This document shows, one piece after another, positions 2,548 to 50,933 of a stretch of 64,000 nt of DNA. Position numbers and translations under genes: made by a program. This DNA comes from Candidatus Rokuibacteriota bacterium (GTDB lineage Bacteria; JAUVQV01; DATDCY01), in contig JANOHV010000151.1 of NCBI GenBank assembly GCA_031406795.1, forward strand, positions 6,232 through 70,231, read 5' to 3'. Below the pieces are notes generated by a model. That model made no database searches and was not told where the DNA came from. It saw only the letters and a program-made list of their open reading frames with translations. Each line of letters opens with the position of its first letter. The stretch's first letter is position 1.

Positions 2548-3372
2548 TCAGAAAAGGGAGCTGACCAGCTCGTCGAGCGCCAGGTGCAGCTCCCGGTCGT
2601 CGGTGAGCGTCTCGGTGATTGCCGCCCGACAGGCGGTCCGCGGCGCAACCCCGGCGCGGATCAACTTGCCGGCGTGGATGAGCAGGCGCGGGCTCGCGCC
2701 CTCGGTGAGCCCGGAGTCCCGCAGGCCGCGCGTCATCGCCCCGAGGCGAACCAGCAGGCCCGCCGTCTCGGCGTCGATCCCTGCTTCGTGCCGCACGATC
2801 TCCTCCTCGAGCTGCGCCGGCGGGAACGTGAACTCGAGGGAGACGAAACGCTGACGGGTGCTGGGTTTGAGATCCTTGAGCACGCTCTGGTACCCGGGGT
2901 TGTAGGAGACGGCCAGCAGGAACCCCGGCGGCGCCTTGATCAACTCGCCGCGCTTTTCGATAGGCAGCTCGCGCCGTTCGTCCGCGAGGGGATGGATGAC
3001 CACGGTCGTATCCTTGCGCGCCTCGACGATCTCGTCCAGATAGCAGATCGCCCCGGCCCGCACCGCAACGGTCAGGGGCCCGTCCGTCCAGACCGTGTCG
3101 CCTCCCCGGATGAGGTAGCGCCCGACGAGGTCTCCCGTGGAGAGGTCGTCGTGGCACGAGACGCTGACGAGCGGCCGCCGCAGCTCCCAGGCGAGCCGCA
3201 GCATGAACCGGGTCTTCCCGCACCCGGTCGGCCCCTTGAGCAGCAGCGGCAGGCCGTTGCGGTCGGCCGCGCGCGCGATCTCCAGCTCGGTGCCCTGCGG
3301 CAGGTAGTATGGCTCGTCGGTGATCAGGTGATCGGCCGCCATCTGTGCAAGCGGTTCTTCCGGCTCGGTCAT
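2548..3372 (-). CDS. CbbQ/NirQ/NorQ family MoxR-type AAA+ ATPase
   Basis: Walker A GPTGCGKT, Walker B CYLDEIVEARKD, family motif SYNPGYQSVLKDLKPSTRQRF. Confidence 0.92.
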   Translation of the reverse strand: MTEPEEPLAQMAADHLITDEPYYLPQGTELEIARAADRNGLPLLLKGPTGCGKTRFMLRLAWELRRPLVSVSCHDDLSTGDLVGRYLIRGGDTVWTDGPLTVAVRAGAICYLDEIVEARKDTTVVIHPLADERRELPIEKRGELIKAPPGFLLAVSYNPGYQSVLKDLKPSTRQRFVSLEFTFPPAQLEEEIVRHEAGIDAETAGLLVRLGAMTRGLRDSGLTEGASPRLLIHAGKLIRAGVAPRTACRAAITETLTDDRELHLALDELVSSLF

Positions 3373-3675
3373 GCCCGCCTCCCTCGCGTGATTTCCGGGT
3401 TCTTTGCGCTGGAGTCGATTGTAGTCTGTGTGTACGTGTCATACCATGAGCGCCTCTGTCCGAAAGTCAGCGCCGCCGGCTCCGCGGGAGAACTCCGTCC
3501 GCCGGCGAGATCAGTCGGGAGTCCTCCTACGACACGGTCCTACCTGCGTGGCGGCGCCGGCCCGGACTGCTCGCGCGCTTCACCCTGCTCATGGTGCAGG
3601 CCGGGGCGGAGGGATAAGCACAGCCGCCGGGCCGGTGGAGGCCAGACCCCCTCCGCCGGCCCTGACGCGATGCGA

Positions 3676-5046
3676 TTACTTCTCGGTCACCTCATAGGCG
3701 CCGTTGGCGCCGACGACGATCACCGCGTTGAGATACCGGACCTTGTCGTACCCTTTCACGATGAGCAGGTCGTAGGCCATCTTGGCAAGGACGCCCGTAT
3801 TGCAGTGGATCACGACGTTCTTGTCCTTCGGGACCTCTGCGAAGCGCGTCTCCAGCTGGCTCTGCGGAATCGGGAGCGCGCCGACGAGTATCCCGTCCAC
3901 CGGCTGTTCGCGCACATCGACGATGAGCGTCCCTTCAGGCCGTGTGTCCACAATCTTCTTGAAATCGTCGATGGTGATCTCGCCGGGCTTGAGCGTCTTC
4001 ACGTACTCGATCTTCGCCGGCGACGCCAGCGGACCTGTTTTCAACTCACCCTTCCAGGAGCCGAGACCCTGGCGCAGGACCGTCGTGTTCACGTAGCCCC
4101 AGCCCCGCACGGTCTTGAATGCGTCGGGGCTCGCCTGCGCCGTGTCGTAGAGGACGATCGGCGCCTTCTTGTTCACCGGGAACCGGTCTTTCCACGAGGC
4201 GAGATCCTGCGCCGGGATGCCGATCGCCCCCGGAATGAACCCTTTTTCAGCCGTCGCGGCGTCGCGCAGATCGATCAGAACGAACGACTCCCCGCCCTTG
4301 ATCCAGTTTTCCAGCGCCACGGGGCCGCTGGCGACCAGTCCGCCGGCTTTCTTCCAGGCGGGCATGCCGGCGTGGAAGACCTTCACGTTGGTGTAACCCA
4401 GCGCCTCCGCCTCACGGGCGGAGAAGGGGCTGAGCGTTCAGGTTTCGCCTGCGCAGTAAAAGATCAGGAGGGCCCCCTTGTCCGCCGGCAGCAGGGCGGC
4501 CGCCTTTTCCTTGAAGCTCGCATACGGCAGACTGACGGCGCCGGGAATGTGCCCCTCGGCGAACATCGGGCCGGGACGCGAGTCGAAGAGGGCGAATTTC
4601 CCCGTATCCGGCCCCTGTGCCGCCAGTTCCAGCATCTGCTCGACCGCGATGATCTTCTCGGCCGCGAGCTTGAAGGGCTGCTTGACGGCGACCTGAACGG
4701 CCACCGGAGCCTTCTCGCCCCCCGTGAACGAGACCGCGATCTCCCGGTCGCGCGTGATCGTCTTGAGCGCGTCCGCACCGCTGATCTTCTCGCCTTCCTT
4801 GACCTTGAGATCATCGCCGTACTTGACGATCCAGACCACGGGGCCGATCGTGACGTTCATGCTCTTGAATTCACCGGAAACCGACACCATCTTGCCCCGG
4901 AGCACCCCGTCGGCCGCCTGATGGCAGATCTTGCAGGACTCCATGGTGTTCGGCTTGGCGGCCGCGACCGGCCCGGCCTCCAGGACGAGGGCCAGCGTCG
5001 CCGCCCCGGTTGCTGCGACGGCGCTCCACTTCTTGCTCTTCGGCAT
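3676..5046 (-). CDS. Exported c-type-heme, triple-rhodanese protein with probable selenocysteine (UGA at 4438-4440), 456 aa
   Basis: ORFs 4438..5046 and 3676..4386 share a frame and join as LIFYCAGET-U-TLSPFSAREAEALGYTNVKVFHAGMPAW, restoring a rhodanese domain. Signal peptide, CKICH motif, AGGAGG RBS, SECIS-like hairpin. Confidence 0.85.
4397..4434 (-). promoter_or_regulatory. Bacterial SECIS-like stem-loop
   Basis: 3' of the UGA: lower stem CUCAGC/GCUGGG, upper stem CUCCGCC/GGCGGAG, apical loop CGUGA with G at position 2, starting 22 nt after the UGA. Confidence 0.75.
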
Positions 5047-5149
5047 GGGTACACCTCCTGTTGATTGTACGTTCCCCGCGCGCGAGCGATCTCAAGTTCC
5101 GCAATCCGCTCGCTGCGCCTCGGTCAACACTCCTGTCGCCTGAATCAAG

Positions 5150-5166
5150 AGCAATGATCGTGCCTT
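5150..5166 (-). promoter_or_regulatory. Sigma54 (-24/-12) promoter of the rhodanese gene
   Basis: Minus strand AAGGCACGATCATTGCT fits GG-N10-GC and the TGGCACG-N4-TTGC consensus. Confidence 0.75.
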
Positions 5167-5231
5167 GGGAAATGGTCGGGACGGTTTCCGGGCGATCCGC
5201 CTTGGTGCAGAATTCCCGCCGAGTCGTTGTT

Positions 5232-5244
5232 AATCAATCGGTTG
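5232..5244 (+). promoter_or_regulatory. IHF-binding site
   Basis: AATCAATCGGTTG matches WATCAANNNNTTR; lies between the sigma54 promoter and an AT-rich candidate enhancer at ~5365-5420. Confidence 0.6.
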
Positions 5245-5408
5245 CGTCACGGGGAGCCGGCGGCGCGAACTCGCAACAACCTTCCTTCAGCGCGGAATCG
5301 TGTCGGCAGGCGCTCTGGAAACGACGTGCATCGCGGTCGTTCTTGCCGGAATTCCGTTCACTTACGTTAACAGGCGTTCAGTTTCATGTTACTGTGTTTA
5401 CGATTAAC

Positions 5409-6773
5409 ATGAAAATTAACGAACTGGTCAAGGATCCGGGATTCCTCGAGAGCGTCCTCGACACGATGAGCGACGGCCTCATGGTTGTCGATCCCGACGG
5501 AACCATCATTTCCTTCAACCCGGCCGCCGAGCGCATCACCGGCTACCGGCTCGAGGAGGTGATCGGCAAGCCCTGCGCGATCCTCGACACGAGCACGTGC
5601 GTCTATCACGAAGGGGACCGCACGACGATTCGCTGCTCGCTCTTCAAGGACGGCAAGGCGGTTCAGAAGAGCTGCCGCATCCGCGCGAAGGACGGCCGGG
5701 AGATTCACCTGCTCAAGAACGCCACGGTCCTGCGCGACGAGAGCGGCGCGATGATCGGCGGCATCGAAACGATGACCGACGTGACCTCGCTGGTGATCAA
5801 GGAGCGTCAGATCCAGGAATTGGCGGTGGCGATCCGCGAGGAGCAGGCCTTCCAGGGACTCGTCGGCCGCAGCCCCGGGATGCTCCGGGTCCACGAGCAG
5901 ATCAAGAACGCCGCGCGCAGCGAGGCACCCGCGGTCGTCCTCGGCGAAAGCGGCACCGGCAAGGAGCTGGTCGCCGCGGCGATCCACGCACTCAGCCGCC
6001 GCAAGGACGGCCCGTTCCTGAAAGTCAACTGCGCCGCGCTCAACGAGCACCTGCTCGAGAGCGAGCTGTTCGGGCACCGGCGGGGCGCGTTCACCGGCGC
6101 GGTGCGCGACCGCCAGGGGCGCTTTGAGGCCGCCAGCGGCGGGACGATCTTTCTCGACGAAATCGGCGACATGCCCGCCCCGATGCAGGCCAAGCTGCTG
6201 CGGGTGCTCGAAGGCAAAGAGATTGAGCGCGTCGGCGAAAATACCCCGGTCCCGATCGACGTGCGGCTGGTGTCCGCGACGAACCGCCAACTCGCGGCGC
6301 TCGTGGAGTCGGGGACATTCCGCGAGGATCTGCTCTACCGGGTGAACGTCATTCCGATCGTGCTCCCCCCGCTGCGCGATCGGGTCGAGGACATTCCCCT
6401 GCTCGTCTCGCATTTTCTCGCGCGCATCGGGGCGGCGAACGACCGGGCGGCCTTGCGGGTGACCCCGGCCGCGCTCGAAGCACTGCAGCGATGCCGCTGG
6501 CCGGGAAATGTCCGGCAACTGATCAACGCTCTGGAGTACGCCGTCATCACCTCCCGCGGCGAGGAAATCGACCTCCAGGATCTGCCGGGAAGCCTCCTGG
6601 CCGAACCCGCCAGCCTGCCGCCGCTGCGACGACGAGGCACCCTGACCCCGGAGGCGGTCCGCGCCGCCCTCGCCAGTGCCGGGGGGAGTCGCTCCGCCGC
6701 GGCCCGCGATCTCGGCGTCAGCCGAGTGACGCTCTGGAAGCGCATGAACGAGTTCGGCTTGACCGGGCGCTGA
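5409..6773 (+). CDS. PAS-domain sigma54-dependent transcriptional activator (Fis-type HTH)
   Basis: N-terminal PAS; GESGTGKE, ESELFGH, GAFTGA, FLDEIGD, WPGNVRQL; C-terminal HTH LGVSRVTLWKRM. Start placed at ATG 5409. Confidence 0.9.
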   Translation: MKINELVKDPGFLESVLDTMSDGLMVVDPDGTIISFNPAAERITGYRLEEVIGKPCAILDTSTCVYHEGDRTTIRCSLFKDGKAVQKSCRIRAKDGREIHLLKNATVLRDESGAMIGGIETMTDVTSLVIKERQIQELAVAIREEQAFQGLVGRSPGMLRVHEQIKNAARSEAPAVVLGESGTGKELVAAAIHALSRRKDGPFLKVNCAALNEHLLESELFGHRRGAFTGAVRDRQGRFEAASGGTIFLDEIGDMPAPMQAKLLRVLEGKEIERVGENTPVPIDVRLVSATNRQLAALVESGTFREDLLYRVNVIPIVLPPLRDRVEDIPLLVSHFLARIGAANDRAALRVTPAALEALQRCRWPGNVRQLINALEYAVITSRGEEIDLQDLPGSLLAEPASLPPLRRRGTLTPEAVRAALASAGGSRSAAARDLGVSRVTLWKRMNEFGLTGR

Positions 6774-6825: not shown

Positions 6826-7026
6826 GGATCAGCGCGTACGCGCGGATCAGGAAAGTCAGGCTTGTCACCTGGTCCGGTTTATCCAAGTCGTTGCTCATTT
6901 CTGATCGCAATGCTTGCTTCAAGCGATGCTTGACCTCTGCCACGCCGTGCTTCCTGCAATAAGTCCGGCTTTTTCAGTAGTTGAAATGCCTCCTCTGCTG
7001 CTGGATCCGCGCGTACGCGCGGATCC
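6826..7026 (+). repeat. ~200-bp palindrome-capped element, copy 1 (preceded by a degenerate partial copy at ~6782-6848)
   Basis: Both ends carry the GATCCGCGCGTACGCGCGGATC-type palindrome; inverted copy at 8892-9090. Confidence 0.9.
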
Positions 7027-7044
7027 GGGGCCCCCGCGGCGGTG

Positions 7045-7073
7045 TTGACAAGCCCCGGTTTTCTCTGGAGAAT
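7045..7073 (+). promoter_or_regulatory. Sigma70 promoter of serC
   Basis: TTGACA-17 bp-GAGAAT; the same hexamers and spacing recur at 38533-38561. Confidence 0.6.
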
Positions 7074-7157
7074 CCCCCATCGGTCGGAAAGGGTACTTCA
7101 GCGGCGCGGGCGTTCGGGCGCCGGGACAGGGGTAACGGCAGCATAAGGAGACAGTCC

Positions 7158-8240
7158 ATGAGTCGTGTGTATAATTTCAGCGCGGGGCCGGCGGCAATTC
7201 CGCTGGAGGTTCTGGAGCAGGCGCAGCGGGAGATGCTCGACTGGAACGGCTCGGGCATGTCCGTGATGGAAATGAGCCACCGCGGCAAGGACTACATGTC
7301 CATCGCGGAGAAAGCCGAGGCCGACCTGCGGACGCTGATGGCGATCCCCGCGAACTACAAGGTGCTCTTTCTGCAGGGGGGCGCCTCGCAGCAGTTCTCG
7401 ATGATCCCGATGAACCTGCTCGCCGGGAAGAAGAGCGCCGATTACATCAACACCGGCGCGTGGTCGAAGAAGGCGATCTCCGAGGCGAAGAAATTCTGCA
7501 CGCCGAAGATCGCCGCGTCGACCGAAGCCGACAAGTTCATGCGGGCGCCGGCCGCAGCGGAACTCAAGCTCGATGCCGAGGCCGCCTACGTTCACTACAC
7601 CCCGAACGAGACGATAGGCGGCGTGGAATTCCCCTACGTGCCGGCCACCGGGGCGGTCCCGCTGGTCGCCGACATGTCCTCGACGATCCTCTCCCGGCCC
7701 ATCGACGTCTCGAAGTTCGGCCTGATCTACGCCGGCGCGCAGAAAAACATCGGCCCGGCGGGGATGGCGGTGGTGATCATCCGCGAAGACCTCATCGGCA
7801 AGGCTCCCGAGGGCACGCCGACGATGCTCGACTACAAGACCCACGCCGCCGAGGGCTCGATGTACAATACCCCGCCGACGTACACCTGGTACATCGCCGG
7901 TCTGGTCTTCGACTGGCTGCTGCGCAACGGCGGCCTGACCGCGATGGGCGCGATCAACGACCGCAAGGCGAAGAAGCTCTACGCGGCAATCGACGGGTCG
8001 GGTTTCTACAAGAACCCGGTCGAGGTCGCCTCCCGCTCCTGGATGAACGTGCCCTTCACGCTGGCAAAACCCGAACTGGACGAGACCTTCCTCAAGGAGG
8101 CCAAGAAGGCGGGGCTGGTCACGCTCAAGGGACACCGCTCCGTCGGCGGCATGCGCGCCAGTATCTACAACGCCCTGCCCGAGGCCGGCGTCGACGCGCT
8201 GGTCGCCTTCATGAAGGACTTCGCACAGCGCAACGGGTAG
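7158..8240 (+). CDS. serC: Phosphoserine aminotransferase
   Basis: YNFSAGPA, SVMEMSHR, GAQKNIGPAG (PLP lysine), MYNTPP, GHRSVGGMRASIYNA; AAGGAG RBS. Confidence 0.96.
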   Translation: MSRVYNFSAGPAAIPLEVLEQAQREMLDWNGSGMSVMEMSHRGKDYMSIAEKAEADLRTLMAIPANYKVLFLQGGASQQFSMIPMNLLAGKKSADYINTGAWSKKAISEAKKFCTPKIAASTEADKFMRAPAAAELKLDAEAAYVHYTPNETIGGVEFPYVPATGAVPLVADMSSTILSRPIDVSKFGLIYAGAQKNIGPAGMAVVIIREDLIGKAPEGTPTMLDYKTHAAEGSMYNTPPTYTWYIAGLVFDWLLRNGGLTAMGAINDRKAKKLYAAIDGSGFYKNPVEVASRSWMNVPFTLAKPELDETFLKEAKKAGLVTLKGHRSVGGMRASIYNALPEAGVDALVAFMKDFAQRNG

Positions 8241-8260: not shown

Positions 8261-8803
8261 TCAGGAACCGAGCGCCTTGAGGAGGGCCGCCTCGTACTGC
8301 TTCTCGGTGCCGGTTTCGAAGCCCGTGTGGACGTAGCGCACGATCCCCTTGCGGTCGATGACCAGAGTGTGGGGGACCACGAAGTTGGTGTAGGCGTCGG
8401 ATACCGTGAACTCCGGGTCTACGAGGACCGGGTAGCTCGGGTTGACCCCCACCTCCTTCATGATGGTCTTCGTGGCGGCCGCGTCCACCCCGTCGGTGAC
8501 CACGGAGAGGACCGTCACGCCCTTTCCGGCGAAGCTCTTGTGCAGCTGCTCGAGAAACGGGGCCTCCTGCAGGCAGGCGCCGCAGCGCAGCGACCAGAAG
8601 GCGAGCAGCACGACGCGGCCCTTGTTGGCGATCGACAGTTGCACCTTCCGCCCCTCGGTGTCCGCGAGGGTGAAATCCTGGGCTTTGTCCCCGACCTTGA
8701 ACTTCGAGGCCAGCTCCTCGGCCTGCGCGGGCAGGGCCGCGGCGGTCACCAGCGTCCCCACTACGGCCAGCAGCGCCGTGATCTTGAAGAACGTGCGTTT
8801 CAT
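8261..8803 (-). CDS. Exported TlpA/ResA-family thioredoxin-like protein
   Basis: Signal peptide; AFWSLRCGAC (CxxC); cis-Pro VVPHTLVIDRKG; GGAGG RBS. Confidence 0.85.
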   Translation of the reverse strand: MKRTFFKITALLAVVGTLVTAAALPAQAEELASKFKVGDKAQDFTLADTEGRKVQLSIANKGRVVLLAFWSLRCGACLQEAPFLEQLHKSFAGKGVTVLSVVTDGVDAAATKTIMKEVGVNPSYPVLVDPEFTVSDAYTNFVVPHTLVIDRKGIVRYVHTGFETGTEKQYEAALLKALGS

Positions 8804-8891
8804 CTGCGTTCCTCCCACGTCGGGTTCGTCTTCGAGTCGGGCCGTAGATAATCGGGATTGGTCCGAATGTCAAGGTCAGCCGGTCCGCCCA

Positions 8892-11371: not shown

Positions 11372-12643
11372 TCAGATCGGTCCGCCAACCCCGTGACAGA
11401 GGGTGATATTGAAGCAACCAGGCGTACCGGGGTTCGACTGGTGGCAGCGGGCGCAGACCGGGGCGTTCGCCTGGTCTGTCGACTTGTGACGGCTCACGCG
11501 CCAGCCGGCGCTGGCGTGCGGGGCACTCCAGCCGTGACAGCCGATATTAACGTGACAGGTCTGGATGGACGACCCGCCATCGAGAAAGAGCCCGTGACAG
11601 GTCTGGCAATTCGCGAACCCGGGGGAAGCCGCCTTGGCGGCAGCGCCGTGCTGACTCCCGGCCGACCAGCCTGCGGGGTGGCAGGCGCCGGTGATATGTG
11701 CGGCGGTGACGGCGAAACAACTGGGCGTGCCCTTGCCGGCGTGGCAGCCGGCGCATTCGGCGGCCGCGCTCTGGTTCGTCCGCCGATGCAAGGTGCGCCA
11801 GCCCGCGGGGTGGCGACCGCTCCTGACGCCGTGGCAGAGCGTGCTGTTGAAGCAACCGGGCGTGCCGGCGCTCGATTGGTGGCAGCCGGCGCACGTCGAG
11901 GCCTGGCCCTGGTCAGCTTCGGGGTGAGATCGGAGCCAGCCTCCGGGGTGCGGGCTCTTGGCGCCATGGCAGAGGGTGTTGTTGAAGCAGCCGGGCGCGC
12001 CGGGATTCGACCGATGGCAGCCGACGCAGACGGCGGCCTCACCCTGGTCCGTCCGGGGATGGCTTTGCAGCCAACCCGCGGGGTGGTAGCTTTTCGCTCC
12101 ATGGCAGAGGGTGTTGTTGAAGCAGCCGGGCGCACCGGCGTTCGTCTGGTGACAGCCGGTGCAGGCGGAAGCCTGATTCTGGTTCGTCCTGGAATGGCTG
12201 CGGAGCCAATCCGCGGGGTGGTCGGACTTGGGCCCGTGGCAGAGACTGTTGTCGAAACAGTTGGGGACCCGATTGTTGCCCTTGTTGTCGTGGCAGACGG
12301 CGCACTCGGCGGCCCTGGAGCGATCCGCCGCGTGCTGCGCACGCCAGTCCGCGCCGGCGGGATGCCCATCGGGACCGCCCGGGTGGCAGGCCTGGCCGTC
12401 GCGGGAGGTCGAATAGCAGCTGAGCGTCGCGATGCCGCCGCGCAAATCGTCGCCATGGCACTCGGCGCACGACGCGGCCCCGGAGTTGCGGTACTCGGCG
12501 GAGTGCTTCGGGAAGAAATCCTCCGGGTGTCCCCCATCCGGGTCGAACGGTGCGCCGTGCTTTTTCGAGCAGCCGACCACGAGCACCGCAAGAAGCGCCC
12601 AGCCGATCGTCAGTGCCCGGGAACTCCGCTTTGAATGTGACAT
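11372..12643 (-). CDS. Multiheme cytochrome c lipoprotein, paralog B (8 CX2CH plus 8 extended CXnCH motifs)
   Basis: Lipobox VVGC; alternating CxxCH and CFNNTLCH-type motifs; AGGAGG RBS. Confidence 0.85.
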   Translation of the reverse strand: MSHSKRSSRALTIGWALLAVLVVGCSKKHGAPFDPDGGHPEDFFPKHSAEYRNSGAASCAECHGDDLRGGIATLSCYSTSRDGQACHPGGPDGHPAGADWRAQHAADRSRAAECAVCHDNKGNNRVPNCFDNSLCHGPKSDHPADWLRSHSRTNQNQASACTGCHQTNAGAPGCFNNTLCHGAKSYHPAGWLQSHPRTDQGEAAVCVGCHRSNPGAPGCFNNTLCHGAKSPHPGGWLRSHPEADQGQASTCAGCHQSSAGTPGCFNSTLCHGVRSGRHPAGWRTLHRRTNQSAAAECAGCHAGKGTPSCFAVTAAHITGACHPAGWSAGSQHGAAAKAASPGFANCQTCHGLFLDGGSSIQTCHVNIGCHGWSAPHASAGWRVSRHKSTDQANAPVCARCHQSNPGTPGCFNITLCHGVGGPI

Positions 12644-12689
12644 ATACAGCACCTCCTGTGTTCTGATGCCGCGTCGGCGCTCAGGGTTT

Positions 12690-12988
12690 CGGCGGGGCGC
12701 CCCCGCCGCGCAAAATCGGGAAAATCACGGAGATGTCCCGGTCTTCGAGCCCGTGCGCGAACGAGAGCGCGAAGAGCTCCTTCACCGCCGCCGCCGTGAA
12801 GAGGGGCCGGTGCAGCGGCGAACGCGTCCTCCTCGCCGCTGACGAACACCGCGAGCTCCCCCGCCGAGAGGCTCGGCTTTCTCGGGGGTGCGATTCCAGA
12901 TCAGCAAAGGGTGTCCGGCGGCGGCCAGGCGCCCGGCGACAACGCTGCCGAGGGCGCCGAGCCCGATGAAACCGATCGTCTCCTTCAT
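12690..12988 (-). pseudogene. Internally deleted 3-hydroxyisobutyrate-dehydrogenase-like NAD(P)-dependent oxidoreductase
   Basis: N-terminal IGFIGLGALG..WNRTPEKA, middle GELAVFVSGEEDAF and C-terminal PLFTAAAVKELFALSFAHGLEDRDIS lie in three different frames within 300 bp. Confidence 0.75.
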
Positions 12989-13055
12989 GCCACGGCCTTT
13001 CTCATTCGGGGGCGGAGTGCGCGCCGCGAGCTTCAGCGGCGACGACGCCCTGCCT

Positions 13056-13775
13056 TCACTTGACGATGTCGTAGAGGAATTTCTTGTTCATGCTCGCGTG
13101 GGGATTGTGGCAGAGATAACAGACCCGGCTGCGCGACTTCTCGACGTGATCGAGACTCCCGGGCTGGTCGTGGCAGGCGCTGCACATCGTCCTGGCGTCG
13201 TCGACCGTCAGCGCGGGCCAGCTGGACCCGTGGGGTTCGTGGCAGACAACGCACTTGCCGGCGGCGAGCGGACCATGAACATAGGGGTAGATCATCGCCA
13301 GCTTGCGGTGGCAGGACTTGCAGGTCTCGGACTCCGCATTTACCGCCGGGCGGCGCACGCCGGCATGACACTCGGCGCAGCGACCCTCCAGTACCGGCAC
13401 GTGGTAGCGGTAGGGGGCCCGTCCCCGGCCACCCGAGCCGTAGATGAAAGTGAGTTTCGCGTCGAGTTCGCCGACCCGCGCATCCAGGGTGTGGGGTCCC
13501 GGACCCGGGGTGAGCTTGGCCGAGAAGGTGTCTCCGAGACGCGTGATGTCGACCACCGGGGCTCCGTCGAGAAGCAGATTCACGAAACCGGCGCCCGTGG
13601 GAATCCGTCCGGCCACGACCACCGTGCCCGCGGGAATGAACGCCCCCGCCGCGGGCATGACGAACTCGATCGCCCCGCCGGGCGGCACTGCGGTGTCGGC
13701 GGCACGTGAGACCCCGGCGACGACGAAAGCGGCCACCAGAGCGATGGGGGCGAAAACGCGAAAATATAAATGCAT
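13056..13775 (-). CDS. Exported pentaheme cytochrome c (doubled-CXXCH type) with an N-terminal beta-rich domain
   Basis: Signal peptide; CAECH, CKSCH, CVVCHEPHGS, CSACH, CYLCHNPHAS. Confidence 0.85.
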   Translation of the reverse strand: MHLYFRVFAPIALVAAFVVAGVSRAADTAVPPGGAIEFVMPAAGAFIPAGTVVVAGRIPTGAGFVNLLLDGAPVVDITRLGDTFSAKLTPGPGPHTLDARVGELDAKLTFIYGSGGRGRAPYRYHVPVLEGRCAECHAGVRRPAVNAESETCKSCHRKLAMIYPYVHGPLAAGKCVVCHEPHGSSWPALTVDDARTMCSACHDQPGSLDHVEKSRSRVCYLCHNPHASMNKKFLYDIVK

Positions 13776-13895
13776 ATTCTTATTATAGACCACTGCGGAC
13801 TATTGATTCGTGCGTTCCGTGACAGCCGGCCGACCGCAGGTCCGAGCGGGTGCTCGGAAGATAAGAATCCTTGCGCTGCAGTTTCCGGAGCAAAC

Positions 13896-13924
13896 CGGAG
13901 CCGGGCCGCCATGGCCCGGCTCCG
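13896..13924 (-). terminator. Hairpin/terminator after the porin-cytochrome operon
   Basis: Perfect 12-bp stem CGGAGCCGGGCC/GGCCCGGCTCCG followed by GTTTG on the minus strand. Confidence 0.55.
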
Positions 13925-13962
13925 CTCTTCAACCTCTTCGAAGCCGTTTTCAGGTCAATCCG

Positions 13963-15222
13963 TCAATCCCCGTGACAGAGCGTGCTGTTGAAACAGCCGG
14001 GTGTGCCGACGTTCGACTGGTGACATCGGGCGCAGACCGGCGCATTCCCCTGGCTGGTCGTCTGATGTCGGCCGCCGCCGCCGCGCCAGCCGACGCTGGC
14101 GTGCGGGGCGCTCCAGCCGTGACAGCCGACATTGGCGAGACAGGTCTGATTGGCCGATCCGCCATCCAGCCCAGGCCCGTGACAGGACTGGCAGTTCCCG
14201 AATCCAGGGGACAACGCCTTGGCAGCGGCGCCGTGCTGAGTCCCCGCCGACCAGCCCACGGGGTGGCCGACACCTGCGCCATGGCAGGCAGAGGCGGTGA
14301 AGCAACTGGGCGTGCCCTTTTCAGGGTGACAAGCGGCGCAGCCCGTTGCCGCGCTCTGGGTCGTGCTCTGGTGTGTGGTGCGCCAGCCCGCGGGGTGCTG
14401 CGCGCTTTTCACGCCGTGGCAGAGGGTACTGTTGAAGCAGCCGGGCGTGCCGGCGTTCAATCGGTGGCAGCCGGCGCAGGTGGAAGCCTGGCCCTGGTCC
14501 GTTGCGGAGTGGGATTGCAGCCAGCCCGCAGGGTGCGAACTCTTGGTGCCGTGGCAGAGCGTGTTGTTGAAACAACCGGGCGCGCCGGCGTTGGTCAGGT
14601 GGCAGCCGGCGCAGACGGAAGCCTGGTTCTGGTTCGTTCCCGTGTGGGATTGCAGCCAGCCCGCAGGGTGCGAACTCTTGGTGCCGTGGCAGAGGGTGTT
14701 GTTGAAACAGCCGGGCGTGCCGGCGTTCGTCTGGTGGCAGGCGGCGCAGTTCGAGGCCAGCGACGGGTTGGTCCCCGCATGGGCGGCTCGCCAACCCGAG
14801 GGGTGGCCGGACTTGGGTCCGTGACAGAGGCTGTTGTCAAAGCAGTTGGGGGCCTGGTTGTTGGCTTTGTTGTCGTGGCAGACGGCGCACTCGGCCGCCT
14901 TGGAGGAATCCGCCGAGTGCAGCGCGCGCCAGCCGGCGGGGTGGCCGCCGGGACCGCCCGGGTGACAGCCCTGGCCGTCGCGGGAGCTCGAATAGCAACT
15001 CACCGTCGCGATGCCGCCGAGCAGATCGATCCCATGGCACTCGGCGCATGCCCCGCCACCGGAGTTGCGGTACTCGGCGGAGTGGTTCGGAAAGAAGTCT
15101 TCCGGGTGCCCTCCATCCGGGTCGAACGGTGCGCCGTGCTTCTTCGAGCAGCCGACCACGAGCAGCGCGAGCAGCGCACAGCCGATCGCAATCGCCCTGG
15201 AACTGCGGCTCACTTGTGACAT
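13963..15222 (-). CDS. Multiheme cytochrome c lipoprotein, paralog A (8 CX2CH plus 8 extended CXnCH motifs)
   Basis: Lipobox VVGC; 135-bp internal repeats (e.g. 14521 vs 14656); GGAGG RBS; overlaps the upstream pentaheme gene. Confidence 0.85.
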   Translation of the reverse strand: MSQVSRSSRAIAIGCALLALLVVGCSKKHGAPFDPDGGHPEDFFPNHSAEYRNSGGGACAECHGIDLLGGIATVSCYSSSRDGQGCHPGGPGGHPAGWRALHSADSSKAAECAVCHDNKANNQAPNCFDNSLCHGPKSGHPSGWRAAHAGTNPSLASNCAACHQTNAGTPGCFNNTLCHGTKSSHPAGWLQSHTGTNQNQASVCAGCHLTNAGAPGCFNNTLCHGTKSSHPAGWLQSHSATDQGQASTCAGCHRLNAGTPGCFNSTLCHGVKSAQHPAGWRTTHQSTTQSAATGCAACHPEKGTPSCFTASACHGAGVGHPVGWSAGTQHGAAAKALSPGFGNCQSCHGPGLDGGSANQTCLANVGCHGWSAPHASVGWRGGGGRHQTTSQGNAPVCARCHQSNVGTPGCFNSTLCHGD

Positions 15223-15653
15223 ATGCCACACCTCCCCACGTTCTTGCGCCCGTGGCAGGGGAAGCAGGAGGCCGGATCGAGCTTCCCGTCGGCCCGGTGC
15301 TGGGTCAGGTAGTCCCCGCGGTGCGGCGTGCCCGAATCGAAGCGGCCCAGGCGCTTGTCGGAGGGCTTGATCTCCTCCTTGTTGCCGTGGCAATCAGCGC
15401 AGGACGAAACCTGATGGCACATCTCGCAGGTGCGCTGGTCCCGCAAGGCGACCGCGCCGTGCGATTTCATCCACCGCGCGTCGTGATCGGAGGCGGCGCT
15501 GTCGGCATCGTGGCAGGAAGTGCAGATCGGCGCGCCCTGCACCTTCTCGGGGTGGACGAAGGCGGCGCTCTTGGGTCCGGCGCACGCCCCGAGCAGCCCC
15601 GCCGCCGTCAACAGCAGCGCGGCCGCGAAGACCATGGTTGATCGGGTCATCAC
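15210..15653 (-). CDS. Pentaheme cytochrome c lipoprotein (size and position like Geobacter ExtC)
   Basis: Lipobox LGAC; CTSCH, CEMCH, CADCH, CFPCH, CGICH. Confidence 0.85.
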   Translation of the reverse strand: MMTRSTMVFAAALLLTAAGLLGACAGPKSAAFVHPEKVQGAPICTSCHDADSAASDHDARWMKSHGAVALRDQRTCEMCHQVSSCADCHGNKEEIKPSDKRLGRFDSGTPHRGDYLTQHRADGKLDPASCFPCHGRKNVGRCGICHK

Positions 15654-16918
15654 TTGGTGCCTCCTTTCTTGATCGAGGCGTCGTAACGCCAGAGCACGGC
15701 GAGGAGCCCCTTGATTTCACGGTCGAATTCGGGAGTCTCTCCGTACTCGCCCGAGGCCGAAAGCTCGAGGGACTTGCTCAAGGCGTAGCTCAACCCGAGT
15801 TTCCCGGTCGTCGCGATCGTCTCGCCGTTGATTGCGACCCCATACGTCACGTACTCGGCGCCCAAGGAGAGGTGCACGGGGCCGAAGGCTTTTGTCGCGT
15901 GTGCGCTGATCTCCTGGTACCGGTCCTCCTCGGCTTCGCCGTGGACCTGCCGGTAGCCCGCCCCTGCCGTTGCCCCCGATCTGGCCCAGGAGAGACGCGC
16001 GCCGTACGTGCTGCCGTCGCTGCCCCCTTCGTCTGGGGCTCGGAACGCCGCATATTCGCCGGCAATGGTGAAACCAAGGCCGAGGACGATCTCGACCTCG
16101 CCGCCGTACCGGTCGTGCTTCGCGTCTTCGATCGGCAGCAAGGCGCGGTTGAGGGGCTCCTTGAAGTAAGCGGTGTAGTCGGTGGAGGCCCACGTTGCGG
16201 TGAGCCGCACCCGCTTCGCGAACGGGCCGAGAACAAGCCGATAGTCATGACGGGCCCACTTGCTGTCGGCCACACTGTACAGGGAAGTTCCCGTCAGCTC
16301 GACGAGCCGCAGCGGAGCCAGGAAGAGGTCCGAACCGGCCTCTTCGCGCACGTCCTCGCCGTCGTTCTGCTCCTTGAGGTAGGAGGCTCCCAGACGATAG
16401 AGCCCGGCGCGTCCCTGCGAGATGCGGCCGCCGTACAGCAGGTCCTTGGAGCGGCCCCCTTCCTCGACCTCGACGGGAACCCCGCCGAAGAACGTCACAT
16501 CGAACCCTGCCGGCAGATCGCTGCCGAGCATCAAACCGTCGAAGACTTCGTGGCGTGCCACCCCTGCGGTGAGCGAAACCCGCCCCACGCGGGCTTCGGC
16601 GTTGCGTTGCGGCGCGCGCCAGCCCAGGAATGCGTACTGCAGCTCGCTGTTGCTCTTGCGCCCCAAAGTTTCATCAGCCAGGTCGGCCCTGCCCCAGCCG
16701 CCGACCCGCAGGTACACGCCCGGCTGCATGAGGTCCTCGGCATTGAGGGTCAGATATTCGTAGGGCAGCACATGAGTATTCTCCCCGTCGGTGCCACGCG
16801 CGAGAACATAAGTCCGCGACTCGAGCGAGATTTCCGTTGCCGTCGCCGGGGGCGCGCCGACAGCCAGCGCGGCTCCCAGAAGGGCGAGTGCGGAAAAAGC
16901 TGTGACAATCTTCACCAT
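15650..16918 (-). CDS. Outer-membrane beta-barrel protein of a putative porin-cytochrome conduit
   Basis: Signal peptide; alternating Gly/aromatic beta strands; last strand ...VLWRY; first gene of a cytochrome operon; AAGGAGG RBS. Confidence 0.7.
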   Translation of the reverse strand: MVKIVTAFSALALLGAALAVGAPPATATEISLESRTYVLARGTDGENTHVLPYEYLTLNAEDLMQPGVYLRVGGWGRADLADETLGRKSNSELQYAFLGWRAPQRNAEARVGRVSLTAGVARHEVFDGLMLGSDLPAGFDVTFFGGVPVEVEEGGRSKDLLYGGRISQGRAGLYRLGASYLKEQNDGEDVREEAGSDLFLAPLRLVELTGTSLYSVADSKWARHDYRLVLGPFAKRVRLTATWASTDYTAYFKEPLNRALLPIEDAKHDRYGGEVEIVLGLGFTIAGEYAAFRAPDEGGSDGSTYGARLSWARSGATAGAGYRQVHGEAEEDRYQEISAHATKAFGPVHLSLGAEYVTYGVAINGETIATTGKLGLSYALSKSLELSASGEYGETPEFDREIKGLLAVLWRYDASIKKGGTK

Positions 16919-17139
16919 GACCTCCTTTCGGTGCAATCCTGCGTGGTTGAAAAATCCGACATCAGACTTCGTCCTACGGGAGAAACAATACGCCCTCCCG
17001 AAACAATAGCAACCCTGGGTGTCAATTTTCCCATACGCATAGCCTAGTCACGGCGTCGGGAATGCACTGTGACGCAAATCACTCAGACTGTTCCCGCTCT
17101 CGAACGTGACGTCGTGCCGAGGCAGGCGCGTCGTTGATC

Positions 17140-27885: not shown

Positions 27886-28860
27886 GTGGAAGAGCAGGCG
27901 GCGCCGGTGAAAGTGTCCTGTCCTCACTGCGCGTACACCACCCAGATCTCTCGCAGCCGCATCCCGGCAGGCGGCGCACGGGCCACGTGCCCCAAGTGCG
28001 GGGGGGAATTCCGCCTGCGTCCGGCACCGCCGGAGGAGGGGCTCCCCGCGCCGCTGCCGGCGCCTGTGGCAGAGGCCCTTGCCCCACCGCCTGCCCTCGT
28101 CCCGCCGGTGCCCGCGCCGGCCGGAATGGAGTCATCCGCGGCTGCGCCTCCCCGCGCGGGGAGATCCGGAAAGGAGAACCGGCAGTACCGGAGGATACCG
28201 TTCGCGGTGGACGTCCTCGTGAACAAGGCGATTCTGATGAAAGCGATCGATATCAGCCAGGGGGGGCTGTACGTGCACACCGGTCGTGCCTTCATACCCG
28301 GGAGCACCATCGAGGTCGAGCTGCCGCTCGGCGCACAGAAGATCTCCGTCAAGGGCAGCGTCCAGCACAACCAGAACGGTGTCGGCATCGGGATCAGGTT
28401 CCTCGACCTGAGCAAAGCGCACCAGAACGCGATCTTCGAGTTCATGCGCAGCGACCGAGCCGGGGGCGCGAGAGCCGACGTTTCGAGGAAGAGGGTCCTG
28501 CTCGTCGACGAAGACGCCATGAAGCGGCGGATGAGCAAGAGCAAGCTGATTCTCGAGGGCTTCTCCGTCGTCGATGTCGAGGACGGCTTCGAGGCCATCC
28601 GGCGGATGGAGGAGGAACCGCCCGACCTCGTGATCCTCGACCTGTTCATGCGGAAGATGGACGGCTTCAAGGTGCTCACCATCATCAAGGAGTCCCCGAA
28701 GTGGAAGGACATCCCCGTCCTGATCTACTCCTCGAAAGGTAGTGACCAGATCATGGACAAAGTGCTGGCGGCCGGAGCGACGGAGTTCCTCCTCAAGGCG
28801 ATGACTTCGCCCACGAAGCTGGCGGAGATCGTCAAGAAAACCCTCTCCTCCCGAGGCTAG
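27886..28860 (+). CDS. Zinc-ribbon + PilZ + receiver domain protein
   Basis: CPHC..CPKC; Pro-rich linker; PilZ RQYRR and DISQGG; receiver PDLVILDLFM..DG. Confidence 0.8.
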   Translation: MEEQAAPVKVSCPHCAYTTQISRSRIPAGGARATCPKCGGEFRLRPAPPEEGLPAPLPAPVAEALAPPPALVPPVPAPAGMESSAAAPPRAGRSGKENRQYRRIPFAVDVLVNKAILMKAIDISQGGLYVHTGRAFIPGSTIEVELPLGAQKISVKGSVQHNQNGVGIGIRFLDLSKAHQNAIFEFMRSDRAGGARADVSRKRVLLVDEDAMKRRMSKSKLILEGFSVVDVEDGFEAIRRMEEEPPDLVILDLFMRKMDGFKVLTIIKESPKWKDIPVLIYSSKGSDQIMDKVLAAGATEFLLKAMTSPTKLAEIVKKTLSSRG

Positions 28861-30401
28861 GCTTTCTGCACCGCCGGCTCCGACACCATATCCGCGCTCT
28901 GCGCATCCAGCTGCTCGCGGGTCTTGATCTTGAAGGTCAGGGCGGCGGCCAGGATGAGGCAGAGCCCGGCGGCGAAGAAACAGCTGTCGAAACTGCCGGC
29001 CGAGCGGGCCTGGAGCATCTCGGAGACGCGGCCCATCACGAAGCCGCCAACGCCCCAGGCGCTGAACAGGACGCCGTAGTTGATGCCGAAGTTCTTCAGC
29101 CCCCAGAGGTCCTTGACGAACGAAGGGAAGAGCGCGAGGTTCGTGCCGTAGTTGAAGCCGATGAAGGTCGCGAGGACCACCAGCAGGATCGGGCTCGTCG
29201 CCTTCGATCCGACGATCGGGATCGCCGCAAACATCATCAGCGCCTGGCAGGCCAGCATCACGAACAGCGTCCGGGCGCGGCCGATCCTGTCGGAGAGCAG
29301 GCCGGCGACGATGCGCCCGCCCGCGTTGCCGACGGCCATGATGGCCACCGCGAGGAACGCCAGCTCCCCGAGGCTCTTCTTTGCCATTCCGGCCACGCTG
29401 CCGATGACCATGAGCCCGGCGCCTGAACCGATGAAGAAGAGCAGCCAGAGCAGGTAGAAGGTCGGGGTTTTCAGGATCTCCGAGGGGGTGTACTCGCGGG
29501 AGACTCTCCGGACGGGAGCGTCGGCCTTGGCGTTGGCGGCAACATAGCCCTTGGGCGGGTTGGTCAGGAACATCGACAGACTGCTCACCACGAACAGGAA
29601 CATCAGCCCGAAGAAGAGCATCGCCTGCTGCAGCCCATACACCTTGAGGAGCCAGGTCGCGAGCGGCGCAATGTATACCGAGGCCAGCCCGAAGCCGCTG
29701 ACCACCAGGCCGGCGATGAGCCCCGTCCTGGCCGGAGGGAACCACTTGAGCGCGGGCGGGGTCGCCGACGAGTAGCCGAACCCGATGCCGGTGCCCGCAA
29801 GCACGCCGAAGCCCAGGACCCACGCCGCGTAGCTGGTAGTCTGCGAGATCCAGAAGAAGCCGGCCCCGACCAGAAGGCCGCCCACCATGGCGGTGACCCG
29901 CGGACCGACCTTGTCCTGGCACTTCCCGGCGACGATCATCGCGAAGGAGAAAACCAGACAGCAGACGGCATAGGGATCGTTGATCGAGGCGAGATCCCAC
30001 TGGAAGGCACCCGGTCCGCCCTTCTCGATGGAGGCTTTGATGGCGCCCTTGAAGACGCTCCAGGTGTACAGAATGCCGAGTGCGAGATTGATGGCGGTGC
30101 CGGCGAGAGTGACGATCCAACCCCTGTTGCGCAATTCTTGCGACATGCCCCCTCCTGTCAACTCCGACTCATGTGGGTTGCAACCAGCCTGCTGGGTGCG
30201 ATGCGGCATCGCGTGGCGATCGAGCAACGTCTTGTAGGTCGCGCACTCCGCGTACCTCGAGCTGCAGTTGTTGGCGATTCGGTGGACGACGGAGACGGAG
30301 ACATAGCCACGGCCGACTTCGCATCCGGCCGTCTCCTTCCCGAAGAACGGGCAATGCATACTGTTCCTCATCAGATTGTCGAGCAACTCGGTCTTGGTCA
30401 T
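28857..30401 (-). CDS. OFA/OxlT-family MFS transporter with an in-frame Cys-rich N-terminal extension (alternative start 30146)
   Basis: LGILYTWSVF, QDKVGPR, ALKWFP..TGLIAG, GRIVAGLLSDRIGR, NFGINYG; an RBS precedes both ATG 30401 and ATG 30146. Confidence 0.85.
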   Translation of the reverse strand: MTKTELLDNLMRNSMHCPFFGKETAGCEVGRGYVSVSVVHRIANNCSSRYAECATYKTLLDRHAMPHRTQQAGCNPHESELTGGGMSQELRNRGWIVTLAGTAINLALGILYTWSVFKGAIKASIEKGGPGAFQWDLASINDPYAVCCLVFSFAMIVAGKCQDKVGPRVTAMVGGLLVGAGFFWISQTTSYAAWVLGFGVLAGTGIGFGYSSATPPALKWFPPARTGLIAGLVVSGFGLASVYIAPLATWLLKVYGLQQAMLFFGLMFLFVVSSLSMFLTNPPKGYVAANAKADAPVRRVSREYTPSEILKTPTFYLLWLLFFIGSGAGLMVIGSVAGMAKKSLGELAFLAVAIMAVGNAGGRIVAGLLSDRIGRARTLFVMLACQALMMFAAIPIVGSKATSPILLVVLATFIGFNYGTNLALFPSFVKDLWGLKNFGINYGVLFSAWGVGGFVMGRVSEMLQARSAGSFDSCFFAAGLCLILAAALTFKIKTREQLDAQSADMVSEPAVQKA

Positions 30402-30480: not shown

Positions 30481-30496
30481 TGCATCGGGCGTGCCA
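30481..30496 (-). promoter_or_regulatory. Sigma54 promoter of the MFS transporter
   Basis: TGGCACGCCCGATGCA (GG-N10-GC), downstream of an NtrC-type regulator gene. Confidence 0.7.
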
Positions 30497-30791: not shown

Positions 30792-32176
<1,385 letters not shown>

Positions 32177-32177
<1 letters not shown>

Positions 32178-50017: not shown

Positions 50018-50110
50018 TGGCGGAGAGAGTGGGATTTGAACCCACGAGGCAGCTTATGACCGCCTACACGCTTTCCAGACGTGCTCCTTCGGCCGCTCGG
50101 ACATCTCTCC
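50018..50110 (-). tRNA. tRNA-Ser(GGA)
   Basis: Anticodon loop CTGGAAA, long variable arm, GCCA end. Confidence 0.93.
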
Positions 50111-50334
50111 GCCGGCAAAAATAGCTGAATTGGTCGGAAAACGCAAGGAAATCACACGGAGGAGAGTGGCAAAGCGCACCTCGGACCTAATCCGGTTATG
50201 AACTGGACCGATCAGAGAAGGAGCGGCGAAGCCACGACGCAGTACCGGGTTGCGATCCGATCGCAGCCCGAACTCGAACCGCGAGCCCAAGGGGTCCGCA
50301 GCCCTCGATCAATCTAGTCGCGAGCGGTTCGAGT

Positions 50335-50425
50335 TGGCGGAGAGGGTGGGATTTGAACCCACGAGCACCTTTAGAGCGCTACCGCTTTTCGAGAGCGGCG
50401 CCTTCGGCCACTCGGCCACCTCTCC
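50335..50425 (-). tRNA. tRNA-Ser(CGA)
   Basis: Anticodon loop CTCGAAA, long variable arm, GCCA end. Confidence 0.93.
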
Positions 50426-50459
50426 GTTTTTCAGTATAGCACGGATCGGCGCCGGAGGT

Positions 50460-50933
50460 TCACCGCTGCAGCCGCCGGGCCCGGCGTTCGCGAAAGAATT
50501 CCCGCAGCAGCTCCTGGCTTTCGGCCTCGAGCACTCCGTGGATGATCTCGGCCCGATGGTTCAACCGCGGGTCATCGAGGATGCGGTAAAGGGTTCGGGC
50601 CGCGCCGCCCTTGGGGTCCGGCGCGCCGAAGACCACGCGGGCGACACGTGCGAGGACCAGAGCCCCGGCGCACATCGCGCACGGCTCGAGGGTGGCGTAG
50701 AGCGTTGTGCCAGGGAGTCGGTAGTTTCCCAGCCGCCGGGCGGCGCGACGCAGCGCGACGACCTCGGCATGAGCGGTCGGGTCGCATCCGCCGGCCGGCC
50801 TGTTGTAGGCGCGTGCGATTACCTCGCCGTCGGCGGCGACGAGAACCGCCCCGATGGGGACCTCGTCGGCGCGGCCGCCGCGTGCAGCCTCGCGCAAGGC
50901 CAGGCGCATATAGTGCTCGTGCGGGAGCCTCAC
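50460..50933 (-). CDS. tadA: tRNA adenosine(34) deaminase
   Basis: EVPIGAV, DPTAHAE, TLEPCAMC, DPKGG, LNH. Confidence 0.92.
   Translation of the reverse strand: MRLPHEHYMRLALREAARGGRADEVPIGAVLVAADGEVIARAYNRPAGGCDPTAHAEVVALRRAARRLGNYRLPGTTLYATLEPCAMCAGALVLARVARVVFGAPDPKGGAARTLYRILDDPRLNHRAEIIHGVLEAESQELLREFFRERRARRLQR

Follow-up and report, generated by a model that had tools for sequence, protein, structure and literature searches.

Sud of Wolinella succinogenes, an exported protein with a rhodanese fold (PDB 1qxn), is a sulfur donor to polysulfide reductase. MccSep (ExtKL) is a pentaheme selenoenzyme; a 2026 study showed that Geobacter sulfurreducens uses it as polysulfide reductase when respiring sulfur, and proposed that a His/Cys-ligated heme and selenocysteine (Sec, U) form an Se-S-S intermediate (PMC13510729). 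The Geobacter ext cluster further encodes ExtH, a rhodanese-like lipoprotein of about 49 kDa (PMC5877670). Among rhodaneses with selenocysteine, a 2026 review of prokaryotic selenoproteomes lists five forms, with the motifs UxxS, UxxG, CxU, UxxG and UxxxxU, of which form 1 (PF00581, UxxS; example WP_010941598.1) is listed as predicted by Zhang & Gladyshev 2005 (PMC13188914). Here we describe a gene for a three-domain rhodanese on the minus strand (3676-5046) of a stretch of 64,000 nucleotides from a Candidatus Rokuibacteriota bacterium, called the window below. Comparative evidence leaves us with little doubt that it encodes a genuine selenoprotein. Selenocysteine in a rhodanese loop is of a known kind, and the gene adds a member and not a principle.

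The in-frame TGA and its probable reading as selenocysteine

The upstream open reading frame (ORF; 5046-4438, minus strand, 202 aa) ends with ...LLIFYCAGET at the TGA at 4440-4438, after which the frame runs on unbroken as TLSPFSAREAEALGYTNVKVFHAGMPAW and leads into the ORF at 4386-3676; the stretch that joins the TGA to this second ORF is TLSPFSAREAEALGYTNVKVFHAGMPAWKK. An earlier note on this DNA had joined the two ORFs through a single UGA inside the first rhodanese loop, and both its coordinates and its frame proved correct. The whole gene comprises 456 codons including the one in-frame TGA, ends at a TAA stop codon (3678-3676) and is preceded by an AGGAGG ribosome-binding site (5054-5059, minus) 7 nt before the ATG. 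With the TGA translated as U, the product has 456 residues and carries the active-site loop FYCAGET-U-TLSP in the first of its three rhodanese domains. The UGA-encoded residue, U203 (4438-4440, minus), would be the fifth residue after Cys198, in a loop that is two residues longer than the canonical one. None of the NCBIfam profiles reaches its cut-off with the window protein. That standard annotation splits the gene, as the note had expected, is evident from the protein collection: 21 of the 120 best matches are C-terminal pieces, proteins of 251-254 aa that start 1-3 codons past the TGA. Clusters of 197-199-aa 'rhodanese' proteins in the ESM Atlas, from Nitrospirota and Thermodesulfobacteriota, match the N-terminal half and are treated as a lead only.

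Homologs carry cysteine at the UGA position, as the earlier note had anticipated for a selenoprotein. In a MAFFT alignment of the query with the 98 database homologs that are 360 aa or longer, the column of U203 contains Cys in 93 homologs, Ser in 3 and Arg in 2. A search of 60 related genomes gave four with a match (83, 75, 61 and 49% identity), all four with exactly one TGA and at the identical codon. From a scan of a larger genome collection, which yielded 309 confirmed matches, 80 loci were kept for analysis; the codon at the U position is TGA in 33 of these and TGC or TGT in 46, with one locus unscored. The titles of the TGA-form records name Nitrospirota/Thermodesulfovibrionales, Desulfocapsaceae (an isolate among them), Desulfomonilaceae, Chloroflexota and Candidatus Rokuibacteriota. 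Among 71 sampled Geobacteraceae genomes, 12 have a full-length match carrying one TGA. Twelve Geobacteraceae loci were fetched, and eight of them have the TGA at the identical codon (YFCAGVT-U-ALSP), followed by UCCGCC-CGUGA-GGCGGA, which is the window's own stem and loop, while four have Cys codons. In one Nitrospirota record (L035, 6001-8137), TGA-form paralogs occur as a tandem pair, and a hairpin is present in each of them. The same-genus ortholog in genome G001 (contig C13, 54102-55611; L026-L028) consists of three overlapping pieces in different frames, with the TGA still in place, and may be a frameshifted gene or reflect assembly errors.

The genome also encodes the machinery for selenocysteine insertion, which the note had named as a check. 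A profile search of the contigs found selA (541 bits, over the cut-off), selD (351 bits, with a TGA of its own) and tRNA-Sec (69.2 bits, anticodon TCA). Of selB only model positions 158-580 (the C-terminal 423) are present, from base 4 of a contig and with a score below the cut-off. Since this selB begins at a contig start and selA reaches the end of a different contig, the selAB operon appears to have been cut by the assembly. None of the refuting conditions of the note that could be checked in sequence holds.

The two-stem hairpin with loop CGUGA that the note had described downstream of the UGA is present as a candidate selenocysteine insertion sequence (SECIS) element (4395-4436, minus). 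It consists of a lower helix (4436-4429/4402-4395) and an upper helix (4423-4417/4411-4405), with stem UCCGCC/GGCGGA and apical loop CGUGA (4416-4412), which starts 21 nt after the UGA. The upper helix, of 7 bp and 14 nt after the UGA, is paired in 95.4% of the alignment cells of 37 distinct TGA sequences versus 62.7% of those of 46 Cys-codon sequences; the lower helix is weaker (74.7% versus 62.0%). The pair at columns 24/36, which are synonymous third positions in one Ser codon and one Ala codon, is kept in 36 of the 37 TGA forms (UA 13, UG 13, CG 10, unpaired 1) and in 21 of the 46 Cys forms. A neighbouring pair is C-G in 37/37 TGA forms versus 10/46 Cys forms because the TGA forms use Glu (GAR) where the Cys forms use Lys. 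Cells changed on both sides number 36, compared to a shuffled mean of 14.8, with 0 of 500 shuffles reaching 36, a figure that is inflated by relatedness; the control with Cys forms is for this reason the stronger argument.

Finally, a 1378-nt contig from a metatranscriptome library spans positions 3733-5110 without gaps and with the TGA kept, although it may come from contaminating DNA, so that it is no proof of transcription. It differs from the window at 31 positions of the coding sequence (CDS), of which 24 are third codon positions, and its 8 mostly conservative residue changes flank the TGA on both sides. Such a pattern indicates purifying selection in a single frame. The other runs of read cover (X7, X2, X3) are partial pieces only, and the stretches that they leave uncovered are not evidence.

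Domain composition and relation to known rhodaneses

The gene product is likely an exported protein of 456 residues, composed of a signal peptide, a CXXCH motif, a small beta domain and three rhodanese domains. The motifs reported in the earlier note (CKICH, Asp in IVLYD, Cys in IHCNTG) were each located in the read-through product, and a probable signal peptide was likewise recognised. By eye, residues 1-30 (4957-5046, minus) have the basic start, hydrophobic run and AAA-K of a probable Sec-type signal peptide, with cleavage at about AAA/K, and a hydrophobic stretch opens all 26 rows of an alignment of family members (A1). The CKICH sequence (4921-4935, minus), a CXXCH motif for heme-c attachment (C38, C41, H42), is kept across the homolog alignment: of the 98 homologs, 10 are gapped at the motif, and 86 of the remaining 88 have C/C/H. 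It is also found in 91 of 94 rows of the family tree described below, the exceptions being one truncation at a contig end and two complete heme-less TGA forms. Exported proteins bearing CXXCH normally receive heme via cytochrome-c maturation, and the motif probably carries one c-type heme.

The N-terminal beta-rich domain (about residues 43-125; 4672-4920, minus) has no Pfam or PDB sequence match. The N-terminal 130 residues are without a Pfam family, and a PDB sequence search gave no match covering residues 1-130 or the whole architecture. The Atlas model available for P0016, a Cys homolog, is similar to small DUF5666/CusF-like barrels, with a TM (template modelling) score of about 0.6, which is a lead only. 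The rest of the protein is covered by three rhodanese stretches (Pfam PF00581, 121.8 bits versus a cut-off of 22.2). In domain 1 (about residues 133-240; 4327-4650, minus), Cys198 (4455-4453) is kept in 98 of 99 aligned sequences and aligns to the canonical catalytic cysteine of the rhodanese 6mxv; U203 sits in a two-residue loop extension relative to canonical rhodaneses such as 6mxv. Domain 2 (about residues 246-340; 4027-4311, minus) has Asp301 (4146-4144) at the catalytic position, as do 81 of the 99 sequences, and is probably inactive. Domain 3 (about residues 356-448; 3703-3981, minus) has a catalytic cysteine, Cys415 (3804-3802), which is invariant in the 26 rows of A1. The invariant residues of this alignment include C38, C41, H42, C198, G200, C203 (U), S209 and C415. 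A set of homologs of ca. 370 aa (P0024, P0037, P0040, P0046, P0064 and others; one source name is Dissulfurispiraceae) leads from a signal peptide directly into three rhodanese domains, without CXXCH or the beta domain.

Of the five rhodanese selenoprotein forms listed in the review, only form 1 fits the window protein, in which U-T-L-S agrees with UxxS; Ser is found at +3 from the U position in 92 of 99 sequences. No heme motif is named in the accessible part of the review's table (PMC13188914), whereas the window protein has its CXXCH. A heme-less three-rhodanese protein with FYCGGVT-U-VLSP, U at the matching column, is encoded in a single-contig Geobacteraceae genome (G084) and would agree with form 1; unlike the window protein it lacks CXXCH and has E for M in GMPxW. 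It seems probable that the Sec site of the window has already been catalogued as form 1, an identity taken from the motif.

The loop is also related to that of TsoB (NF045694, UxxxxU), whose rhodanese domain is homologous to residues 129-245 of the window protein (E = 1.1e-13). The loops FYUAGLTUVRS of TsoB and FYCAGETUTLS of the window protein share the extension and have Sec at the same second position. TsoB differs in that both loop positions are Sec, the rhodanese domain is single, CXXCH is missing, and a membrane domain like that of DsbD and a thioredoxin-like end are present. The window protein scores 50.1 bits against the TsoB profile (cut-off 805), with only the rhodanese part aligning, and 46.9 bits versus 115 against rhodanese_LYCAU (NF041203, CxU), its own motif being C-x4-U. 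The window's genome encodes a TsoB selenoprotein as well (contig C68, 7398-9074; L133), which scores 846.5 bits, over the NCBIfam cut-off, and has two TGA codons and the loop just cited; an additional short rhodanese match with one TGA lies on contig C233 (5814-6092). The best solved match sharing the C-x4-C loop of domain 1 is BH2092 from Bacillus halodurans (PDB 3nhv, 3o3w; E about 5e-10), deposited as 'BH2092 protein' without a functional name. Its loop YCWGPACNG is likewise two residues longer, but the protein has Cys instead of Sec, a single domain and no CXXCH.

Sud resembles the window protein in being an exported rhodanese-fold protein, as the window protein appears to be, and matches domain 3 weakly (E = 1.7e-4). 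Cys-form relatives of the window gene are encoded beside molybdoenzymes of the polysulfide or thiosulfate reductase (Psr/Phs) type, a Sud-like trait, whereas the window gene has no adjacent Psr. Unlike the window protein, Sud is single-domain and Cys-only; it has no heme motif, and its loop lacks a second chalcogen. MccSep is not homologous to the window protein: it has five hemes and no rhodanese domain, compared to one CXXCH, and the window gene was not matched in the search of its genome with the MccSep family (NF040886). MccSep shares with the proposed enzyme a periplasmic location, the combination of heme c, Cys and Sec and a proposed Se-S(n)-S intermediate; it occurs in the same taxa as the window family, and its Cys types too are nested among Sec types (PMC13510729). 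MccSep has been characterised by crystal structure and genetics, unlike the window family.

ExtH has rhodanese domains and is encoded with MccSep, and in genome G061 a gene of the window family lies directly upstream of extH. Membership of ExtH in the family was considered and rejected: in tblastn, the 468-aa ExtH of G084, which has a lipobox and the loop CRAGNA but lacks CXXCH, matched neither the window nor its genome. The accessible literature reports experimental work on only one rhodanese of the Geobacter ext cluster, ExtH, which is thus separate from the window family.

The earlier note had not recognised the architecture as characterised. With respect to the architecture and the lack of a characterised member this stands, while Sec in the loop was already known from TsoB, present in this very genome, and probably from form 1 (UxxS). 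A literature search, with supplements outside its scope, found no characterised family member, no CXXCH-rhodanese architecture, no mention of the split annotation or of the Psr-like and MccSep contexts, and no biochemistry, but only table entries and the papers on ExtH and MccSep; the supplementary selenoprotein lists of PMC1794560, PMC13188914 or PMC13510729 may already name the family.

Genomic context and distribution of the family

The context of the family differs between its two forms. A molybdopterin subunit with a twin-arginine translocation (Tat) signal, PhsA-like, adjoins the gene in 33 of 46 Cys-form loci versus none of 34 TGA-form loci including the window; its best NCBIfam match is thiosulfate reductase PhsA, with 499.5 bits, below the cut-off of 694. 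The set flanking Cys forms comprises a DUF3373 protein, the rhodanese gene and the molybdopterin subunit, often with NrfD and an Fe-S subunit, and an octaheme cytochrome of the tetrathionate-reductase family adjoins 15 of the 46 loci. A search of the window's genome for a Psr-like partner gave as best match to the Cys-form neighbour enzyme a sequence that is 30% identical and carries a TGA.

The TGA forms tend to co-occur with MccSep. Genomes with TGA-form loci contain an MccSep-family match in 25 of 33 cases and genomes with Cys-form loci in 1 of 45, though selA is found in 28 of these 45; in Geobacteraceae the counts are 12/12 with a full-length TGA form, 4/9 with a full-length Cys form and 12/50 without a full-length homolog. 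These counts are not phylogenetically independent, and the groups were defined by the TGA/Cys feature itself. The window's genome (G000) has two MccSep-family genes that score over the cut-off and contain one in-frame TGA apiece (contig C271, 2837-4048, and contig C153, 2664-3773; L123, L124), the C271 copy with five CXXCH. In G061 the genes for the rhodanese, here CytRhd, and MccSep stand on one strand in the order CytRhd-ExtH-ExtI-ExtJ-MccSep, and in G078 MccSep is preceded on its strand, at a distance of about 3.7 kb, by a rhodanese match. The window's genome further contains dsrA over the cut-off with a dsrB-like neighbour (contig C13, 34270-36522), which represents dissimilatory sulfite reductase and therefore indicates a sulfur-metabolising organism.

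The family is large: the protein-collection search, in which 8000 candidates were scored, gave 1562 matches. Its members include Nitrospirota, Thermodesulfobacteriota and a Rokuibacteriota-titled record, among others. For 94 rows (45 TGA, 49 Cys) and 441 columns, a quick maximum-likelihood tree was calculated, with support by the SH-like approximate likelihood ratio test (SH-aLRT) only and a midpoint root. The window protein falls into one group (support 99) together with sequences of its own genus, the Rokuibacteriota-titled record and five rows from Nitrospirota. The TGA/Cys state requires at least 4 changes on the tree, 2 of them forced by starred branches. TGA forms make up a grade within which the Cys forms are placed, and the outermost position is taken by the two heme-less TGA forms; a direction from Sec to Cys, which this would suggest, depends on the midpoint root.

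Upstream of the window gene, a divergent regulator with PAS, sigma-54 activator and HTH_8 domains is encoded (5400-6773, plus), which probably regulates the rhodanese gene; of the 33 other TGA-form loci, six have a homologous regulator beside the rhodanese gene. A sigma-54-type promoter-like site, AGGCACGATCATTGCT, is found at 5150-5165 (minus), about 105 nt upstream of the ATG. Such sites occur in the window at chance level (2 found versus 1.21 expected), but two orthologs from the same genus, L023/L029 and L024, have GGCAC-N5-TTGC at the corresponding position. A search for a sigma-70-like site found none, and a terminator scan remained at chance level. The second sigma-54-like site, TGGCACGCCCGATGCA (30481-30496, minus), lies just upstream of the ORF 28857-30401 and downstream of the ORF 30792-32177.

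The remaining neighbours are of diverse kinds. Downstream of the rhodanese gene, after a gap of 300 nt, a MoxR-like chaperone pair is encoded on the minus strand, consisting of a CbbQ/NorQ-type AAA protein (2548-3372) and a 775-aa VWA protein (214-2541). Beyond the sigma-54 regulator follow a class-V aminotransferase (6981-8240, plus), of the cysteine-desulfurase-like fold family, and an exported protein (8261-8818, minus) that by eye reads like a thiol-disulfide oxidoreductase of the TlpA/AhpC type (WSLRCGAC). The window encodes other proteins with 5-8 CXXCH motifs. At 6 kb from the rhodanese gene, a porin-cytochrome-like cluster (11372-16936, minus) looks like a conduit for extracellular electron transfer; it comprises paralogous lipoprotein-like ORFs with 8 CXXCH each (11372-12652 and 13963-15393), an ORF with 5 CXXCH (13056-13793), a small multiheme ORF in read-through frame near 15200-15650 and a 428-aa signal-peptide protein (15650-16936). 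The 5-CXXCH ORF (13793-13056) was considered as an MccSep-like protein with TGA read-through and rejected, its continuation being Arg-rich nonsense. Four consecutive sub-threshold matches to the tRNA-Sec model (32-41 bits) at about 50021-51438 (minus; contig C198, 56252-57669) are probably a cluster of tRNA genes with long variable arms.

Proposed function and alternatives

As a whole, the locus is best explained by an exported selenoprotein that would perform heme-fed sulfur chemistry at a Cys/Sec pair, and we regard this explanation as reasonably probable. A periplasmic role in sulfane-sulfur metabolism appears likely, while a redox cycle in which the Cys/Sec pair is coupled to heme is put forward tentatively. 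In the proposed mechanism, the periplasmic protein would act on sulfane sulfur in the form of polysulfide, elemental sulfur or thiosulfate; genomic contexts point to substrates of the polysulfide or thiosulfate type. The selenolate of Sec203 would attack the sulfur chain and, together with Cys198 at the canonical persulfide position, form an Se-S(n)-S intermediate. Electrons delivered by the heme would then re-reduce the Cys198/Sec203 pair, freeing sulfide or a shortened chain, and Cys415 of domain 3 may carry persulfide sulfur to or from a terminal reductase, most likely MccSep in the window's genome and the adjacent PhsA/Psr-like molybdoenzyme in lineages with Cys forms. Transcription would probably be sigma-54 dependent and controlled by the divergent PAS regulator. 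The C/U-x4-U loop is twice joined to an electron-delivery module, the c-heme motif in the window protein and the DsbD-like module in TsoB, which suggests that the dichalcogenide is redox-cycled instead of merely carrying sulfur.

Several observations weigh against this explanation. The hairpin of the window alone is not exceptional (minimum free energy -27.3 kcal/mol, z = -1.37; 23 of 200 shuffles fold equally well), so that its significance derives from the cross-sequence comparison only, and an Rfam scan of window positions 3000-6000 at E <= 10 returned no SECIS family but three chance-level matches. The N-terminal half of selB was absent in the search of the assembly, and the possible DNA origin of the RNA-library contig counts here as well. 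With respect to the heme, no invariant His or Met besides His42 occurs in the 26-row alignment that could be the distal ligand. Met228 (GMPxW) was suggestive but was dropped because it is not invariant: among the 91 CXXCH rows its column contains M 83, I 5, L 2 and V 1, and it is E in both complete heme-less TGA forms. The existence of these two complete TGA forms without CXXCH implies that heme is not essential to the Sec loop. As to the proposed partners, the window gene stands alone, without a Psr-like or MccSep gene in the 64 kb. In the window's clade MccSep is found in 2 of 5 carriers (G000 and G001), and none was found in the other three (G002, G003 and G004, 88-95% complete). Physical linkage to MccSep was rejected as a general trait, since the genes lie within 6 kb of each other at only 1 of 80 scanned loci, and eight TGA-form regions of Geobacteraceae and G062 showed none. 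The lack of independence of the co-occurrence counts and the grouping by the TGA/Cys feature belong here too.

The main rival is a passive sulfur carrier like Sud, in which the Cys/Sec loop binds polysulfide sulfur and hands it to a reductase without electron transfer, the CXXCH being structural, part of a sensor or free of heme. The three rhodanese domains, two of them with a catalytic Cys, would suit such a carrier, as would the Psr/Phs-like enzyme at 33 of the 46 Cys-form loci, the weak match of domain 3 to Sud, the lack of a conserved distal heme ligand, and the existence of both TGA forms without CXXCH and homologs of ca. 370 aa without the N-terminal domain. We nevertheless consider it unlikely, given that CXXCH is retained in 91 of 94 rows across phyla, that a simple carrier has no need of the invariant C-x4-C/U pair, and that TsoB joins a loop of this type to a reductant module resembling DsbD. 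A selenoprotein for other chalcogens comes after this, with a role in selenite or tellurite reduction or traffic, or in thiosulfate oxidation similar to that of TsdA and SoxAX, which are His/Cys-heme enzymes. Selenite is also reduced by MccSep, whose mechanism is related to TsdA and SoxAX in the discussion of PMC13510729; the ext cluster, which adjoins the family in G061, has been tied to selenite and tellurite reduction (PMC5877670); a tetrathionate-reductase-family octaheme cytochrome stands beside 15 of the 46 Cys-form loci, and the dsrA of the window's genome fits either direction of sulfur metabolism. Against these stand that no selenium-specific genes were found near the gene in the window, that the commonest neighbour scores best versus PhsA, though below its cut-off, and that no sequence similarity to TsdA or SoxAX was found; we regard this role as improbable.

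Very unlikely, finally, is that the gene does not encode a selenoprotein, the TGA being a true stop codon (of two genes or of a pseudogene) or read through by other means. Gene callers do report the halves separately, the single-window hairpin is without significance or an Rfam SECIS match, and the G001 ortholog is split over three frames. The break, however, lies within the active-site loop of a rhodanese, the 17 codons from the TGA to the next start are conserved in frame, and the TGA is kept in 45 distinct sequences of several phyla with only 4 tree changes needed for its state. Differences past the TGA in the RNA-library contig are mostly synonymous (24 of 31 over the whole CDS at third positions), and both the covariation of the hairpin and the Sec machinery encoded in the genome speak for insertion of selenocysteine.

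If the exported selenoprotein is taken as the preferred explanation, a bolder and rather doubtful extension is that the family represents a second, non-homologous solution to the chemistry of MccSep, in which a single c-heme would feed electrons to a Cys/Sec pair that reductively opens S-S bonds in polysulfide or elemental sulfur, Sec would be ancestral, and the protein would be the missing sulfur-mobilising partner of MccSep. Surveys of the sulfur cycle and of selenoproteomes undercount the family because the gene is routinely split into two ORFs. Nearly every member has CXXCH ahead of the rhodanese domains, a combination that we did not find described in the literature. The occurrence of Cys forms beside Psr/Phs-like enzymes, compared to TGA forms with MccSep, offers a testable hypothesis for a question left open by the 2026 study of MccSep (PMC13510729), and cultured carriers exist, such as the isolate behind L063 and several Geobacteraceae with complete genomes. 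If the extension is true, the family would mobilise sulfur for MccSep in the periplasm of bacteria that respire or disproportionate sulfur, and would have become the partner of Psr-like enzymes once Cys replaced Sec.

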